Virus record (IMG/VR): IMGVR_UViG_2585427789_000012 | Strand: one strand, 5' to 3' | Source: a virus | Taxonomy: Duplodnaviria > Heunggongvirae > Uroviricota > Caudoviricetes | Length of the DNA stretch: 4,891 bases | Part shown: positions 1-4,891 of the stretch, one piece after another | Layout: every line of letters starts with the position of its first letter | Position numbering within the stretch: position 1 is the first letter of the stretch | The notes under the pieces: generated by a model | What the model was told of the DNA's origin: nothing | Seen by the model: only the letters and a program-made list of their open reading frames with translations | Databases searched by the model: none | Position numbers and translations under genes: made by a program

Positions 1-265
1 GCGTTTCCCCGTTCTGGCCTGTCCACTGGCTCACCTGCATGTTACCCGCCACGCTCACCAGTTCGCCTTTGTGGTGTTTTGCCAGTGCGTCGGCCTGTCT
101 GCCAAACGCCAGGACAGATAACCACATCGTCGCCGTTCCGTCATCTGCCTGGCTGCACGGCAGGGGAACCGCCATACTCGCCATCGCCATTTGTGTCCCT
201 TTGCTGGTGGTCTTTAACTGCGGGTCAGCCACCAGCCGCCCGTAAGCCGCTATCTGTGCTGTCAT
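1..265 (-). CDS. Partial CDS (N-terminal 88 codons; gene continues past the window start): SSB-like OB-fold single-stranded-DNA-binding protein
   Basis: Minus-strand frame is open from ATG at 265-263 to the window edge; it is absent from the ORF track because it has no stop in the window. Translation MTAQIAAYGRLVADPQLKTTSKGTQMAMASMAV...WLSVLAFGRQADALAKHHKGELVSVAGNMQVSQWTGQNGE aligns by eye to E. coli SSB at the conserved G.L..DP...W..V..FG..A...KG..V...G...WT.Q.G positions. The ATG overlaps the stop of the upstream ORF (ATGA at 262-265). Confidence 0.6.
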   Translation of the reverse strand, partial: MTAQIAAYGRLVADPQLKTTSKGTQMAMASMAVPLPCSQADDGTATMWLSVLAFGRQADALAKHHKGELVSVAGNMQVSQWTGQNGET

Positions 266-507
266 GCTGTCTGCTCTCCGGTTTTAACGTTGATGGTTGT
301 CACCTGTTCCGCTTCGGCAATCTCCCGTTCTGTCAGCGTGGCAAAGTTTGCCGCTGCCGTGGTCATGAATGCGCTTACCAGTTCGGGATGTGCTTTTGCG
401 TACCCTTCTCCCGCGTTGCGGTCGATGATTTTTATCGCCACCCTCAGCCAGTGTTCTGTCAAATCAAGGGCGTGAGATTGTGGTTTTTTTGCGTGCTTCG
501 TTGTCAC
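262..507 (-). CDS. Hypothetical protein, 81 aa
   Basis: ORF with GTG start at 507-505, preceded by SD GAGGT (515-519 on the minus strand) at 7-nt spacing. Its stop is coupled to the SSB-like start. No family recognised. Confidence 0.5.
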   Translation of the reverse strand: MTTKHAKKPQSHALDLTEHWLRVAIKIIDRNAGEGYAKAHPELVSAFMTTAAANFATLTEREIAEAEQVTTINVKTGEQTA

Positions 508-551: not shown

Positions 552-781
552 CCTTCACCTGTTCACCTTTTGAGATTTTCCCTTTTTATTCATAATGTTA
601 AGGGGTGAACAGTTTCACAAAAACTATTCACCAACTGTTCACCACTGTTCACCCTTAAAGCTCAATAAATAATCAAAAAGGTGAACAGTGAATAGTTTGG
701 TGAACAGTTCACAAATAACTGTTCACCCTATAATGTACTGATATAAAAGATATTTATAACAGGGTGAACAGTGGTGAACAG
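552..781. repeat. Iteron array: nine perfect copies of CTGTTCACC/GGTGAACAG plus degenerate copies; crr/ori-like replication element
   Basis: CTGTTCACC at 559-567, 635-643, 645-653 and 719-727. The inverse GGTGAACAG at 604-612, 680-688, 699-707, 763-771 and 773-781. Degenerate copies at 552-559, 613-618, 627-632, 688-695 and 708-712. An AT-rich stretch (728-762) sits inside the array, which lies directly downstream of the replication gene. Confidence 0.8.
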
Positions 782-794
782 TTATTCCATAAGT

Positions 795-2609
795 TTAATT
801 TTTGCTGTCGTCATTTGTGACCGATGCACATGATGGCATCCAGTCTTCTGAATCCTCTGTCAGTGTCACATTTGAACGCAAACCGTGCTTCGTTTTCCGT
901 TTTATATACTCCCTGCCATATTCCGCCATTGCCCCCGGCATATCTTTACCGAAGCGCGTCAGTGTTACAGGTTTACCGAATCCGTGTGCCCTCATATATG
1001 CCAGATAGGCGTGATAAAGATACCTGCGCGGACTGAACGGAATAATTTCGGCATTACCCACTAACAGACCATCACACATTACCGACGACATGAGATAGCC
1101 ACAGAAGTCCACCAGCGAATCGCCCTCGCGTTTTATCACCAGAGCTTCTTCTGATTTCTGCTGCTCATACAGCAGGCGTTTAGCTTCGTCCTGGTCAGAA
1201 AAACGAGTAAGCAGATGGCGAATCACAACCGCCAGCTCTCCTTCTATTTTTTCTGCCAGCATGGGGTCGCGCTCGTTCTCCGGTACAACCTCCGAAAAAT
1301 TGAATATCACCCGACGACGTGAGATCCCCCCGCTGCGGTCACTGAATGACATGGCGTTATTGTTCACCGCCAGCACGACCGCCTGAATGCGTGTTGAGTA
1401 GGGGGCTTTATGCTTCGGGTCGATTGCCACCTTGTCACCGCCTGTAATAGCCTTAATTCCTGCGCCATCACCAGCGTAGCGGGTCATATCCGGCATGATA
1501 ATCAGCGAAAAGCCAACCACTAACGCGCGTTCCCTTGCATCTTCCAGCGCCTTCATGCTTGCCGATACTGTGTTGGCCTTACCCGCCAGCATGGTGCAAA
1601 TCTCCGCCATCACGCTTTTACCACTTCCCCCTGGACCTGTTACCTCAATGAATAACTGCCAGTCGTACCGGTTCGCCAGCACCATGAATAATGCAGCCAG
1701 CACGCGATCCGTCTTGCGGTCATTCTCTGCCACCGAGCAGCGTAACCACTTCCAGAAATTCGGCGCATGTGTTGCCAGCGTTTCCCCCTCTGCTGGTGGG
1801 CTGAAAGGTAATTCACTGGCAATTAACAACCAGTCGTTTTTGTTATGCTCCCGAAAATTACCTGTTCTGGTATCAAATACCCCGTTACTGAATCCAATCA
1901 GGTTACGGGCTGTATTCCCCATTACAGGCAAACTTAACTTCATGGTATCGACCGCCGATTTAATGGCGTTCTGCGAATAGCTGATCTCCGCATCAATGAA
2001 AATCTGCGCCATAGCACGCTGTAACTCTTTATCCTGAATCGGCTCCCATACAACGCCGTTGTAATGGTGAACAGTGTCAGAGTCGGCATGAATCGCCAGT
2101 TCACCGCCATAATGTGCCAGGAGAACTTCGCCGCGCTGGCTTGCTCCCATCTGGTTAAGCGCCAGTGGTGCGGCGCTGTCTTCTGTTTTTTTCTTAACAG
2201 GAAGCTGAATCACCAGACCATCAGAAAGATTCTGGCGCTCACGGGCCAGATATTCGCGCCAGTTCTGCACCTCCTGGCCGTGCATACCCTCAGGATAAAA
2301 ATTTGCATCCTGTACGCCTGCCGCCGCCAGCTTCTGACCAATCGCCTTTATCATTACTGGCGCAAGATATCCGGCCCTGAATATGCGCACGGATTTTCTG
2401 CCTTCCGGCACAATTTGCAGCTTATCCAGTTCGGATAACTGCTGCTCCCCAAGCCACACAGGAGGCTCATTATCTCCGGCCATACGCGCGTCATGTTCCT
2501 GCCATTGTTTTGCGTGTGACCAGGCATCACTACCCGCAAAAATAATGACTTCTGTTTCTTTGTGTTTTATGCCGCGTGACTGCTGTTTTACGTTCGGTGC
2601 CAGTTTCAT
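795..2609 (-). CDS. P4 alpha-family replication protein (D5_N-like region plus SF3-type P-loop NTPase; 'phage/plasmid primase, P4 family' C-terminal type), 604 aa
   Basis: Walker A VTGPGGSGKS near residue 325, followed by ITGGDKVAIDPKHK...NNNAMSFSDRSGGISRRRVIFNF, which is typical of P4-alpha/D5 helicase cores. SD AGGGG lies 6 nt upstream and the ATG overlaps the upstream stop (ATGA at 2606-2609). The first ~300 residues contain no Cys, so no zinc ribbon is present. Confidence 0.88.
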   Translation of the reverse strand: MKLAPNVKQQSRGIKHKETEVIIFAGSDAWSHAKQWQEHDARMAGDNEPPVWLGEQQLSELDKLQIVPEGRKSVRIFRAGYLAPVMIKAIGQKLAAAGVQDANFYPEGMHGQEVQNWREYLARERQNLSDGLVIQLPVKKKTEDSAAPLALNQMGASQRGEVLLAHYGGELAIHADSDTVHHYNGVVWEPIQDKELQRAMAQIFIDAEISYSQNAIKSAVDTMKLSLPVMGNTARNLIGFSNGVFDTRTGNFREHNKNDWLLIASELPFSPPAEGETLATHAPNFWKWLRCSVAENDRKTDRVLAALFMVLANRYDWQLFIEVTGPGGSGKSVMAEICTMLAGKANTVSASMKALEDARERALVVGFSLIIMPDMTRYAGDGAGIKAITGGDKVAIDPKHKAPYSTRIQAVVLAVNNNAMSFSDRSGGISRRRVIFNFSEVVPENERDPMLAEKIEGELAVVIRHLLTRFSDQDEAKRLLYEQQKSEEALVIKREGDSLVDFCGYLMSSVMCDGLLVGNAEIIPFSPRRYLYHAYLAYMRAHGFGKPVTLTRFGKDMPGAMAEYGREYIKRKTKHGLRSNVTLTEDSEDWMPSCASVTNDDSKN

Positions 2610-2905
2610 TTTTTACCCCTGAATCCGTTAATCATGGTTTTCAGCTTCTGGATGTTTGCCCGTGCCCTGGCGTTGCTGGTGGACACGTTATGCGGCGCGG
2701 TCTGTACCAGAGAAAAATCACGCCGGAACTGATAAACAGGCATCACGCAATCATATTCGTAACCTTCACGGCGGTAGGTTACGCGCCGTTCTTCCACGTC
2801 CTTAATCATTACCGTGCCGCCGTACTGGTCGCGGTAAATATCGCCGCGCGTAAATTTAGGGTGAGTGTTGCCACTGGCAGTTAAGCCAGAATATTTAAGT
2901 TTCAT
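2606..2905 (-). CDS. Hypothetical protein, 99 aa, translationally coupled to the replication gene
   Basis: ATG at 2905 with SD GGAG 10 nt upstream; stop overlaps the alpha-like start. No family recognised. Confidence 0.6.
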   Translation of the reverse strand: MKLKYSGLTASGNTHPKFTRGDIYRDQYGGTVMIKDVEERRVTYRREGYEYDCVMPVYQFRRDFSLVQTAPHNVSTSNARARANIQKLKTMINGFRGKK

Positions 2906-2910
2906 TATTT

Positions 2911-3144
2911 TTATTCTCCGGTGTGCTGTTCTTTATATCTGTCGTGCAATAGATCTATTTCTTGCAGTTCCATTATTACAGGCTCAAGAAGCGTTATTAA
3001 TGCCGTGGCAATTCTTGATTTTTGTTTGTCGCGTTCATTGTCGCCAAGTGTTTCAAGCCATATGCGCAATATTTCCAGCATGTTTTCACTGTGAGAAAGT
3101 GCAAGAAATGCGCGGCCTATTGTTTCGTGGTAAATATCACGCAT
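2911..3144 (-). CDS. Hypothetical protein, 77 aa (predicted helical)
   Basis: ATG at 3144 with SD GAGGA 8 nt upstream; it overlaps the stop of the upstream ORF by 8 nt (3137-3144). Its stop at 2911-2913 is 5 nt from the next start. Confidence 0.6.
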   Translation of the reverse strand: MRDIYHETIGRAFLALSHSENMLEILRIWLETLGDNERDKQKSRIATALITLLEPVIMELQEIDLLHDRYKEQHTGE

Positions 3145-3397
3145 GGCTTACATCCTCAGGAAATTTTCTTCTATAACGCGCCTCTGCCACATATTCCGCA
3201 TAATCGGCGGCGATATTCAGTACATCAAGCCCCGTTGATTTATATTCTCTCGTGGAAAGTAAGAAAAAAGCCGCTCTAATAAGCTCTGGCATTGACGAAA
3301 GCGCATCAGCCGCATCATCAGGAACGCCGGAAAATTCCTGTTTCAGGGAATTAAAACGATCATCACGCATAACCCCCCCCATTTTCACAATCAGCAA
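3137..3397 (-). CDS. Hypothetical protein; 86 aa from the TTG at 3397, more likely 77 aa from the ATG at 3370 (alternative ATG at 3382)
   Basis: The ATG at 3370 gives the same 8-nt ATGCGTGA start/stop overlap seen at 3137-3144 and is preceded by the G8 tract (3373-3380 on the minus strand) acting as an SD-like element. The N-terminus is therefore ambiguous. Confidence 0.55.
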   Translation of the reverse strand: MLIVKMGGVMRDDRFNSLKQEFSGVPDDAADALSSMPELIRAAFFLLSTREYKSTGLDVLNIAADYAEYVAEARYRRKFPEDVSHA

Positions 3398-3602
3398 TCA
3401 GGATGGCTTTAGCCTCATTCAGCGCCATATCAGCACTAAATTGCATAAGAGCCAGTGAGTGAGGAACGAAAGCCCCGGTATATTCTGTTTCGCTGGTGGC
3501 GTGCTTATGCGCCTTGTCTGCGATAACAGAAATATCAATCAGCGCGTGCATCAGCGTTTTGATGGCTTCGGCGGCTGCGTCCGGTGTGGTTTTATTGTGC
3601 AT
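3363..3602 (-). CDS. Hypothetical protein, 79 aa
   Basis: ATG at 3602 with SD-like GGGGGA 6-7 nt upstream; it overlaps the stop of the upstream gene by 11 nt. The C-terminal codons run through the G8 homopolymer. Confidence 0.6.
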   Translation of the reverse strand: MHNKTTPDAAAEAIKTLMHALIDISVIADKAHKHATSETEYTGAFVPHSLALMQFSADMALNEAKAILIADCENGGGYA

Positions 3603-3798
3603 AGGTTTCCCCCTGGCGAATACGGGCGGCGAATACCATCACGCAGCCATCAGGAGATTGCTGACGCGCTTCCTGTTCGCTGGTGGCCTCAATGGTAATC
3701 ACGCGCGGTTGTGCCGTGCTCAGGGCGATAAAACGCCAGATGTATTTATTCAGGTTGTACGAGTCCCGCCCTTGCGGGTGTCTGGTATAATTTCTCAT
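3592..3798 (-). CDS. Small protein, 68 aa, first gene of the leftward operon; possibly Icd-like (host cell-division inhibitor family)
   Basis: ATG at 3798 with SD GAGG at 5-nt spacing. It is the C-terminal 68 codons of the 382-aa track ORF (MRNYTRHPQGRDSYNLNKYIWRFIALSTAQPRVITIEATSEQEARQQSPDGCVMVFAARIRQGETYAQ). The Icd-like label is from recalled annotations of P4-like prophages and is not verified. Confidence 0.55.
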   Translation of the reverse strand: MRNYTRHPQGRDSYNLNKYIWRFIALSTAQPRVITIEATSEQEARQQSPDGCVMVFAARIRQGETYAQ

Positions 3799-3905
3799 AG
3801 CTGCCTCGATACTTCTGCTATCGTTGGTGGTTAGACGCCCTGCATGTGTTGCGAGCACTGCGGGGCGTTGCTTAATTTGAGTGACAAAACTCAAACTGTG
3901 CGCAC

Positions 3906-3935
3906 AGATTAAAATCATGTGTGCGCACATGTCAA
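3906..3935 (-). promoter_or_regulatory. Candidate leftward early promoter (-35 TTGACA at 3935-3930; -10 TAATCT at 3911-3906, 18-bp spacer)
   Basis: Perfect -35 hexamer on the minus strand with a moderate -10; predicted start near 3899, giving a ~100-nt leader before the ATG at 3798. Confidence 0.4.
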
Positions 3936-3938
3936 TAC

Positions 3939-3967
3939 TTAACATCTCATTTTTTTTGCTGTATTGT
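3939..3967 (+). promoter_or_regulatory. Candidate rightward promoter (-35 TTAACA at 3939-3944; -10 TATTGT at 3962-3967, 17-bp spacer)
   Basis: Sigma70-like hexamers read by eye, positioned divergently from the leftward promoter and upstream of the ATG at 4004. Confidence 0.3.
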
Positions 3968-4003
3968 GTGCGCCCATAAAGTCCATTTAAGTGAGGTGCA
4001 TCA

Positions 4004-4201
4004 ATGTCTAGCGGTAACACAAACAACAAATCAGCAAAGAAAAATATTCGATTCCCACATGAGCTTATAGATGGGATTGATGCCAGCGTTGAACAAGAAA
4101 AATTAACTAATCCTAGTGCTAATTTTTCCGCATGGGTCTTAGATGCCTGTGGACGCAAATTAAAATATGAACAGCGCCGGAAGGCCAAAGAATCAGAATA
4201 A
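4004..4201 (+). CDS. Small DNA-binding protein, 65 aa; putative ribbon-helix-helix (CopG/Arc/ParD-like) regulator
   Basis: SD AGGT 6 nt upstream of the ATG. KKNIRFPHELIDGIDASVEQEKLTNPSANFSAWVLDA fits the RHH pattern of an N-terminal beta-strand followed by two helices. It is divergent from the early operon and next to the palindromic operators. Confidence 0.5.
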   Translation: MSSGNTNNKSAKKNIRFPHELIDGIDASVEQEKLTNPSANFSAWVLDACGRKLKYEQRRKAKESE

Positions 4202-4243
4202 TCACTATCAGCGCCGTGGTGTGAGTAACTACGGCGCATTGCT

Positions 4244-4432
4244 ATGCAGGGCAACACAATGACCGATAAAGAATTGACCAAAACATTATCACCGACACGG
4301 AAAAGACGGCGCAGAAAGATAGAGCATGAATCAGAAAGATTCGCACCTTGTTCGTTTGCTCTTGAGAAATTCCTTAAAGAGCGCAGGAAAAAACTCTCGT
4401 TGCAAACCTTGGAACGAACCAAATCTGACTGA
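4244..4432 (+). CDS. Hypothetical very basic small protein, 62 aa (or 57 aa from the ATG at 4259)
   Basis: ORF containing TRKRRRRK; weak SD for the 4244 start, AGGG 9 nt upstream of the 4259 start. A terminator follows. Coding status is uncertain. Confidence 0.3.
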   Translation: MQGNTMTDKELTKTLSPTRKRRRRKIEHESERFAPCSFALEKFLKERRKKLSLQTLERTKSD

Positions 4433-4498
4433 TCACATTGCCCACCAGCCGCAAATGTGGCATTGTTGGTGATGCTTTTGTTTTCCCTTGTTCCCACT

Positions 4499-4527
4499 GG
4501 CGACCCTTTTGCGGTCGCCTTTGTTTT
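4499..4527 (+). terminator. Rho-independent terminator (stem GGCGACC/GGTCGCC, 7-nt loop, TTTGTTTT tail)
   Basis: Perfect 7-bp GC-rich stem at 4499-4505 and 4513-4519, followed by a U-tract at 4520-4527. A weaker bulged hairpin with a U-rich tail precedes it at 4443-4484. The reverse complement has no U-tract, so it is + strand specific. Confidence 0.65.
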
Positions 4528-4565
4528 GCCTGTTATCCGGCAATAGTGGCGCTTCACCACACGGT

Positions 4566-4574
4566 TGATATAAT
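4566..4574 (+). promoter_or_regulatory. Extended -10 promoter element TGATATAAT
   Basis: Perfect TATAAT at 4569-4574 with TG at 4566-4567; no good -35, which extended -10 promoters can lack. Predicted start near 4581. Confidence 0.4.
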
Positions 4575-4580
4575 TCCCCT

Positions 4581-4651
4581 GCACTGATCCATTTTTTTCG
4601 CAGCAGGTTAATTGTTCAGAAAGGCGGTTCCTTATCGGGGCCGCTTTTTTT
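4581..4651 (+). ncRNA. Candidate ~70-nt small RNA (from the extended -10 promoter to an intrinsic terminator)
   Basis: Predicted start near 4581. Terminator hairpin GCGGTTCC (4624-4631), loop TTATC, GGGGCCGC (4637-4644; two G-U pairs), then T7 (4645-4651). No ORF of note lies between them. Confidence 0.3.
4624..4651 (+). terminator. Rho-independent terminator (8-bp stem, 5-nt loop, T7 tail)
   Basis: Stem GCGGTTCC/GGGGCCGC with two wobble pairs, followed by TTTTTTT at 4645-4651. Confidence 0.55.
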
Positions 4652-4891
4652 ATGCCTGAAAATACCCGATAACATGGCTTTTTAGTTTCACCAGGACGAA
4701 CGAAGCCCCGCCCCTGTTCGGGCGTATATCCAGTATTCATGGTTAGATCTCTGTGTTAGTGGATGGGTGGCGGCGGTGCGCCGCCAGCCTGATTAGTGAA
4801 CTGCCTCGCGGCTGTCCTTCCATGCCAGAACTTCGGATAAAGACCAGCCAACGGAACGACCGCCGAGTTTACGCCGTGATGGGAATTGTCC

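Follow-up and report, generated by a model that had tools for sequence, protein, structure and literature searches.

How is DNA synthesis primed in a satellite whose replication protein resembles P4 alpha but appears to have lost the primase? The question is raised by the pri-rep gene at positions 795..2609 (minus strand) of the window, by which is meant the whole stretch of 4,891 nucleotides that was analysed. An earlier note on this DNA, made from the letters alone, had proposed that the encoded protein lacks the canonical primase module and that the element may rely on a host or helper primase. The explanation that we favour, and consider reasonably probable, is that the protein is an origin-binding helicase of the P4-alpha type, with a small, conserved domain, devoid of all known primase catalytic residues, in place of the primase part, and that primers are supplied by the host. 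What was observed directly is the arrangement of domains, the missing catalytic residues, the cluster of iterons and the setting within an island; on these the explanation builds.

Gene and domain layout

The pri-rep reading frame starts with ATG and encodes a 604-aa P4-alpha-like initiator and SF3 helicase, as judged from the ORF, its annotation, identity to alpha and Pfam matches, and is listed in RefSeq as WP_001735913.1, "DNA primase family protein". Because the start overlaps the stop of the upstream DUF4222 gene by 4 nt (ATGA) and the N-terminal peptide MKxAPNxK is kept in homologues, no upstream exon is missing. The bulk of the protein is made up of three recognizable domains, all encoded on the minus strand. 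These are D5_N at residues 161-290 (1740..2129; Pfam PF08706, E 4.8e-13), the SF3 P-loop NTPase core, or DUF5906, at residues 324-432 (1314..1640; PF19263, E 6.6e-11), and a C-terminal winged-helix origin-binding domain, Pox_D5, at residues 495-590 (840..1127; PF03288, E 3.7e-13). The core contains the Walker A motif GPGGSGKS at 325-332, TGGDKV at 389 and RRR at 431, so that both the D5_N-like region with its SF3 core and the motifs read by the earlier note are borne out. In a sequence search of the PDB, core residues 236-439 are similar to the primase-helicase 7ola, while residues 496-592 match 1ka8, the C-terminal domain of P4 alpha (E 3.3e-24). NCBIfam TIGR01613 (primase_Cterm) scores 96.0 bits over residues 238-543, under its curated cutoff of 108.7.

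Nothing in Pfam matches residues 1-160. Toprim, Zn-ribbon and Prim-Pol models give no Pfam match in the 604-aa protein even at E<=1, the Zn ribbon PF08273 included, and the AEP catalytic domain (PF09250 and relatives) is matched neither in the query nor in 28 family members. The protein contains no EGY string, and its first cysteine is residue 291. The expectations that the first ~300 residues would hold no cysteine, and hence no Zn ribbon, and no EGYxxD-type Toprim signature therefore held up, and the profile searches that had been proposed returned D5_N, left TIGR01613 below cutoff and gave no confident Toprim or AEP match with intact catalytic residues in the N-terminal region.

This region consists of two parts. 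Residues 1 to ~130 (2220..2609, minus strand) form a conserved domain in the alignment of homologues, hereafter the N-domain, which is matched by no Pfam model, has a predicted Toprim-like alpha/beta fold and is without the catalytic Glu or DxD. Residues ~131-160 (2130..2219, minus strand) form a poorly conserved linker, with a pLDDT of 68 at residues 131-140. The suggestion that the N-terminal ~170 aa are divergent or non-catalytic is thus right as to the catalytic residues but too generous in extent, the domain being ~130 aa and the linker a further ~30 aa.

P4 alpha (gpalpha, NP_042036, taken from NC_001609), which combines primase, 3'-5' helicase and ori-binding functions, is 777 aa long and does carry the N-terminal primase domain that the earlier note ascribed to it, with Zn_Ribbon_Prim at 30-66 and Toprim_3 at 210-299, followed by D5_N, DUF5906 and Pox_D5. 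By BLASTP, query residues 137-599 align to alpha 313-776 with 49% identity over 464 residues (E 6e-161), and there is no alignment before query residue 137 or alpha residue 313. As far as sequence can tell, the 312-residue primase region of alpha has no recognizable counterpart in the query.

Island context

The window is 100% identical to the chromosome of E. coli E600003 (NZ_CM128598.1), in which the RefSeq annotation shows an island of ~15 kb inserted in yifB. From the integrase end toward packaging, which is the reverse of the window coordinates, the island encodes an integrase, an HTH regulator, YlcI/YnfO, an Icd-like protein, three small ORFs, DUF4222 and pri-rep, followed by an 81-aa ORF, SSB, ProQ/FinO, an HK97 capsid protein, protease, portal, connector, HNH, TerS and TerL. 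No tail or lysis genes are annotated by RefSeq in the ~15 kb. Capsid-forming islands (cf-PICIs) are recognized by an integrase, a regulator and pri-rep together with their own capsid, protease, portal, head-tail connector, HNH, TerS and TerL, and no tail or lysis genes (PMC10085698). By gene content the island matches a capsid-forming PICI, and the window is its replication and early module. The comM-like Mg-chelatase gene yifB is split by the island, its fragments flanking at 2344-3708 and 18772-18945 of the extracted NZ_CM128598.1 locus, outside the window.

Upstream of pri-rep and in the same operon lies the DUF4222 gene (2606..2905, minus strand; Pfam PF13973, E 8.3e-24). On the other side, a conserved hypothetical gene of 81 aa (262..507, minus strand; phrog_1231) stands between the origin and the 5' part of ssb (1..265, minus strand), which encodes the island's own single-stranded DNA-binding protein (RefSeq WP_000126639.1; NZ_CM128598.1 locus 11840-12265). 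Minus-strand genes overlap by 4-11 nt at 2606-2609, 3137-3144, 3363-3370 and 3592-3602, which points to an operon with translational coupling that extends from the Icd-like gene to pri-rep. An open frame of 382 aa at 3592-4740 (minus strand) spans the Icd-like gene (3592-3798) and crosses the opposite-strand YlcI/YnfO gene (4004-4201). It has no Pfam match, RefSeq annotates just a 68-aa Icd-like CDS and a pseudogene fragment (4197-4740) across it, and the frame is probably open by chance or left over from a gene that has decayed.

Putative replication origin

Directly 3' of pri-rep, at 560..780, lies a putative replication origin made up of nine exact copies of TGTTCACC, the P4 type-I iteron, set in both orientations around AT-rich spacers; repeat and inverted-repeat families are found here as well. 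The window contains 11 copies of the octamer where 0.16 would be expected, a number not attained in any of 200 shuffles. The octamer is annotated in both ori and crr of P4, and crr likewise lies just downstream of alpha. In E. coli PICIs, the ori is found 3' of the rep gene, with sets of iterons flanking an AT-rich stretch (PMC6092414), and the arrangement at 560-780 matches this organization. Sub-threshold Rfam matches to the plant miRNA families MIR821 and MIR5380 at 574-754 come from the long imperfect palindromes of the inverted iterons, and are taken as spurious rather than as a sign of an RNA gene. A search of the window with Rfam gave no C4/IsrK-type immunity RNA at E<=0.1.

Cassette exchange with EcCICFT073

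The experimentally studied relative EcCICFT073 (NC_004431 1,377,930-1,388,654) has the same order of Icd-like gene, small ORFs, DUF4222, pri-rep, ori, small ORF and ssb. Over residues 1-106, the 584-aa Pri-Rep of EcCICFT073 and the query are 100% identical; identity stands at ~97% up to residue 135 and at 55% overall. It falls to ~45% in the helicase and ori-binding part, and EcCICFT073 has iterons of the GGTAGACA/TGTCTACC type. The same division is seen in the DNA. Window positions 2188-3597 and 1-472 align to EcCICFT073, the flanking DNA being 83-90% identical, whereas 473-2187, which encompasses the ori and the helicase and ori-binding parts, is unaligned except for two short low-identity patches. 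Since this stretch is unaligned between matching flanks, the helicase-plus-ori unit has been exchanged as a cassette. The alignment places one breakpoint at the boundary between N-domain and D5_N, about residue 140, and the linker therefore contains both this breakpoint and the start of P4-alpha similarity at residue 137. At 98.3% identity between the two islands, the DNA of the N-domain leaves dN/dS uninformative.

Experiment has shown that EcCICFT073 needs its pri-rep to replicate, and that once the gene is deleted the island is transferred about 10^3-fold less, or lower still (Fillol-Salom et al. 2018, PMC6092414). In the same study, in which lambda is among the helpers, rep and ori maintain a ts plasmid in DH5alpha without a helper, and the EcCICFT073 Pri-Rep is named a primase fusion without domain analysis (PMC6092414). 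Helper-free plasmid replication means that a Rep protein with the N-domain suffices with host factors alone. Of the two primer sources first suggested, the host is thus favoured and an obligatory helper-phage primase has been downgraded. Lambda is not known to encode a primase.

Fold and conservation of the N-domain

At E<=10, Pfam returns no relevant family for 10 diverse N-domains. The AlphaFold2 model of the N-domain (pLDDT 89.4, pTM 0.86) has the pattern beta-alpha-beta-alpha-beta-alpha-beta followed by a C-terminal helix, so that the notion of a divergent or non-catalytic N terminus is refined to a well-folded, conserved domain rather than a remnant. Among its structural neighbours, the best four are without exception primase or primase-derived domains, with modest scores, and other Rossmann-like folds score nearly as high. 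Against viral models, Foldseek places DnaG-TOPRIM primases at ranks 2-4 with weak scores; against the PDB, it finds nothing below E 0.028, which is not significant. Taken with moderate confidence, the predicted fold is closest to Toprim. The best viral-model match (BFVD A0A6J5LID1; E 2.9e-4, TM 0.70 normalised by target length) is a stand-alone, uncharacterised protein of 112 aa from an uncultured Caudovirales phage, and may be a free-standing version of the N-domain fold. A lone weak match to Cas2 (E 0.06) in a PDB sequence search with the N-domain profile was judged to be chance.

Homology to alpha's own Toprim is not demonstrable by sequence, since hhalign returns a probability of 0.3% when an N-domain alignment of 95 sequences is compared with a P4-alpha Toprim alignment of 15. 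A manual collinear alignment that pairs VIIFAG with WIAEG and NWRE with DWND is only suggestive, and common ancestry of the two domains is unproven.

For catalysis, the Toprim domain of DnaG-type primases needs a Glu where beta1 ends and a DxD that follows beta3. P4 alpha has both, in the motifs EGYATA and DRD, and the corresponding segments of the query read VIIFAG-SDAW and VRIFRAG-Y. Across 44 representatives of the N-domain below 70% identity, the Glu position is A, V, I or L and the DxD position is AG, FG or AN. The structure prediction called for earlier accordingly yields a confident alpha/beta fold that is most Toprim-like, with non-acidic residues where the catalytic Glu and DxD would stand. 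The most conserved positions are G26, A29 and L58 (100%), then A4, P5, P50, G80 and A95, and the conserved acidic positions are E20, at the start of beta1, and E115, with none other. A Zn-binding element is impossible because the domain has no cysteines. Judged by its residues, the canonical primase active site is missing from the N-domain.

Distribution and partner helicases

An exhaustive profile search for the N-domain gave 138 matches among 1.84 billion cluster representatives. The domain is at or near the N terminus in nearly all of them, and always so in full-length proteins of 416-738 aa. In 28 full-length members analysed with Pfam, it fronts D5_N/DUF5906/Pox_D5 (14-15), DUF927 (11), a VapE-like module (1) or an AAA_25 RepA-like module (1), with no Toprim, Zn-ribbon or AEP match in any of the 28. 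The partner is always a replicative-helicase module, except in apparent deletion fusions. The database proteins P0037, P0040 and P0048, from some E. coli genomes, join the N-domain in frame to the C-terminal half of SSB or to PerC-like sequence, and look like deletion derivatives without the helicase-ori cassette.

Nearly all of the best 120 full-length homologues are 598-619 aa long (range 546-793 aa); DUF5906 and D5_N are found in all, Pox_D5 in nearly all and Toprim in none. Their hosts are Escherichia, Shigella, Citrobacter, Salmonella, Klebsiella and Enterobacter. N-domain DNA is present in 1015 of 5426 complete E. coli genomes, and the helicase-ori cassette of the window in 774 of the 5426, while just 3 of 50,697 phage records encode the domain. 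A search of representative genomes with a close N-domain alignment gave two loci. More distant members reside in small islands of the type int, AlpA/HTH_17, Ash and rep, and in those examined no separate primase gene is found near rep.

Proposed mechanism and alternatives

In the favoured explanation, Pri-Rep would act as both replication initiator and helicase of the cf-PICI. Its C-terminal winged helix would bind the nine TGTTCACC iterons downstream of the gene, and D5_N with the SF3 P-loop core would make up a ring-shaped helicase, by which the origin is melted and unwound in the manner of P4 alpha. In contrast to alpha, Pri-Rep would be unable to synthesise primers: the domain in the primase slot has a Toprim-like fold but no metal-binding acidic residues, from which it would follow that primers come from the host. 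They would most likely be made by host DnaG on unwound DNA coated by host or island SSB. Alternatively, host priming may follow primosome or DnaB loading, or possibly use read-through transcripts across the origin. The retained N-domain is probably non-catalytic and may serve in DNA or protein binding or in support of the helicase, similar to the dead primase domain of Twinkle.

A further, tentative proposal sees in the N-domain a "primase-slot" module, specific to satellites and so far undescribed, which would act either as an adaptor coupling any one of four helicase families with host priming or, less likely, as a new minimal primase. The adaptor form, in which the N-domain recruits priming machinery (host DnaG, a DnaB/PriA primosome or an SSB tail) to its helicase, is somewhat doubtful as stated, and it refines the favoured explanation rather than contradicting it. 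The domain stands in the primase slot of four unrelated helicase families and is swapped as a unit, the EcCICFT073 breakpoint falling exactly at its boundary, and an island-encoded SSB gene is nearby. Its best-conserved loops, after beta1 (A25-G26-x-x-A29-W30) and beta3 (A79-G80), would, provided that the fold is correctly assigned, line what was once the active-site face of a Toprim domain. Against these points, no known DnaG- or SSB-binding motif is recognised in the domain.

It is improbable that the N-domain is a true primase that has diverged strongly from the canonical kinds. Unconventional primases are known from mobile elements such as SCCmec, and in the other relatives checked the slot is filled by a known or annotated primase-type domain (P4 alpha, Scapp and, below threshold, Abt2graduatex2); in addition, no island examined has another primase gene, and E20 and E115 are fairly conserved. 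The core is, however, only about 110 aa long with no Zn-binding element, lacks a conserved acidic cluster and the N-terminal subdomain required for DnaG-type catalysis, and showed no sequence similarity to any primase family in the Pfam, PDB and hhalign searches. In the proposed Toprim register, E20 would fall where beta1 begins, clear of the edge that forms the canonical active site.

There is equally little to recommend a domain unrelated to priming, that is, a satellite-specific Rossmann-like regulatory or interference domain (for helper sensing or blocking, or copy number) with a convergent resemblance to Toprim: the modest structural scores, the near-equal Rossmann-like folds, the empty Foldseek search of the PDB and the near confinement to satellite-like islands agree with it, but the N-terminal fusion to a replicative-helicase module, constant bar the apparent deletion fusions, and the primase or primase-derived nature of all four best structural neighbours do not. 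An obligatory helper-phage primase is downgraded, as the EcCICFT073 replicon works helper-free.

Novelty and significance

The protein family and its requirement for replication are already known. In the literature found on PICI and cf-PICI Pri-Rep, the protein is called a primase and no examination of its domains was found. Nor did the literature searched describe the missing catalytic primase module, an unnamed domain common to four helicase families or cassette exchange at the boundary of that domain. Among the vehicles of gene transfer in Enterobacteriaceae, PICIs and cf-PICIs are very common; annotation routinely labels their core gene "primase", and satellite-finding tools use it as a marker for a primase. 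Our results indicate that the widespread enterobacterial form has no recognizable primase catalytic centre; in its place is a conserved domain, as yet unnamed, which is exchanged among helicase types. This shifts the expected host dependence of satellite replication, with DnaG now a candidate requirement as opposed to the DnaG-independent P4, and defines a new domain family for databases. If the reading of the N-domain as a primase-slot module is true, a large class of satellites, present in roughly a fifth of complete E. coli genomes, would prime by an undescribed mechanism.

Comparison with known systems

P4 alpha and the query have in common D5_N, the SF3 P-loop core and the C-terminal winged helix, as well as TGTTCACC iterons directly downstream of the gene (the crr region in P4). 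They differ in that alpha residues 1-312, with Zn_Ribbon_Prim, the EGYATA Toprim motif and DxD, are absent from the query and an unrelated-looking domain of 130 aa is found instead; in that the query scores under the TIGR01613 cutoff; and in that it belongs to a cf-PICI, not a P4-type satellite.

The same D5_N-DUF5906-Pox_D5 helicase chassis with a swappable N-terminal slot is seen in gp58 of Serratia phage Scapp, gp51 of Streptomyces phage Abt2graduatex2 and vaccinia D5. Scapp gp58 is 38% identical to the query and has a Prim-Pol (AEP) domain in the slot, while Abt2graduatex2 gp51, annotated as a primase, has a DUF3854 match of 22.6 bits, just below the Pfam cutoff of 23; in the query and the EcCICFT073 Pri-Rep, the slot contains the unnamed N-domain. 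A BLAST alignment to the Abt2graduatex2 primase that runs through the N terminus has an implausible register and is not used as evidence. As differing N-terminal modules are found on one chassis, the region before D5_N is a swappable slot, which holds a recognised primase domain in P4 alpha and Scapp and a non-catalytic-looking domain in the satellite lineage.

By analogy, the closest functional counterpart of the query is metazoan Twinkle, a relative of T7 gp4 and likewise a helicase that keeps an inactive primase-derived domain. Twinkle is an SF4/DnaB-like helicase as opposed to SF3 and has no detectable sequence relationship to the query, which makes it an analogue and not a family member. 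Its inactive domain aids ssDNA binding and helicase activity (PMC2241861), and the satellite protein would provide a tractable parallel in bacteria to this case of a helicase with a retained but dead primase domain.
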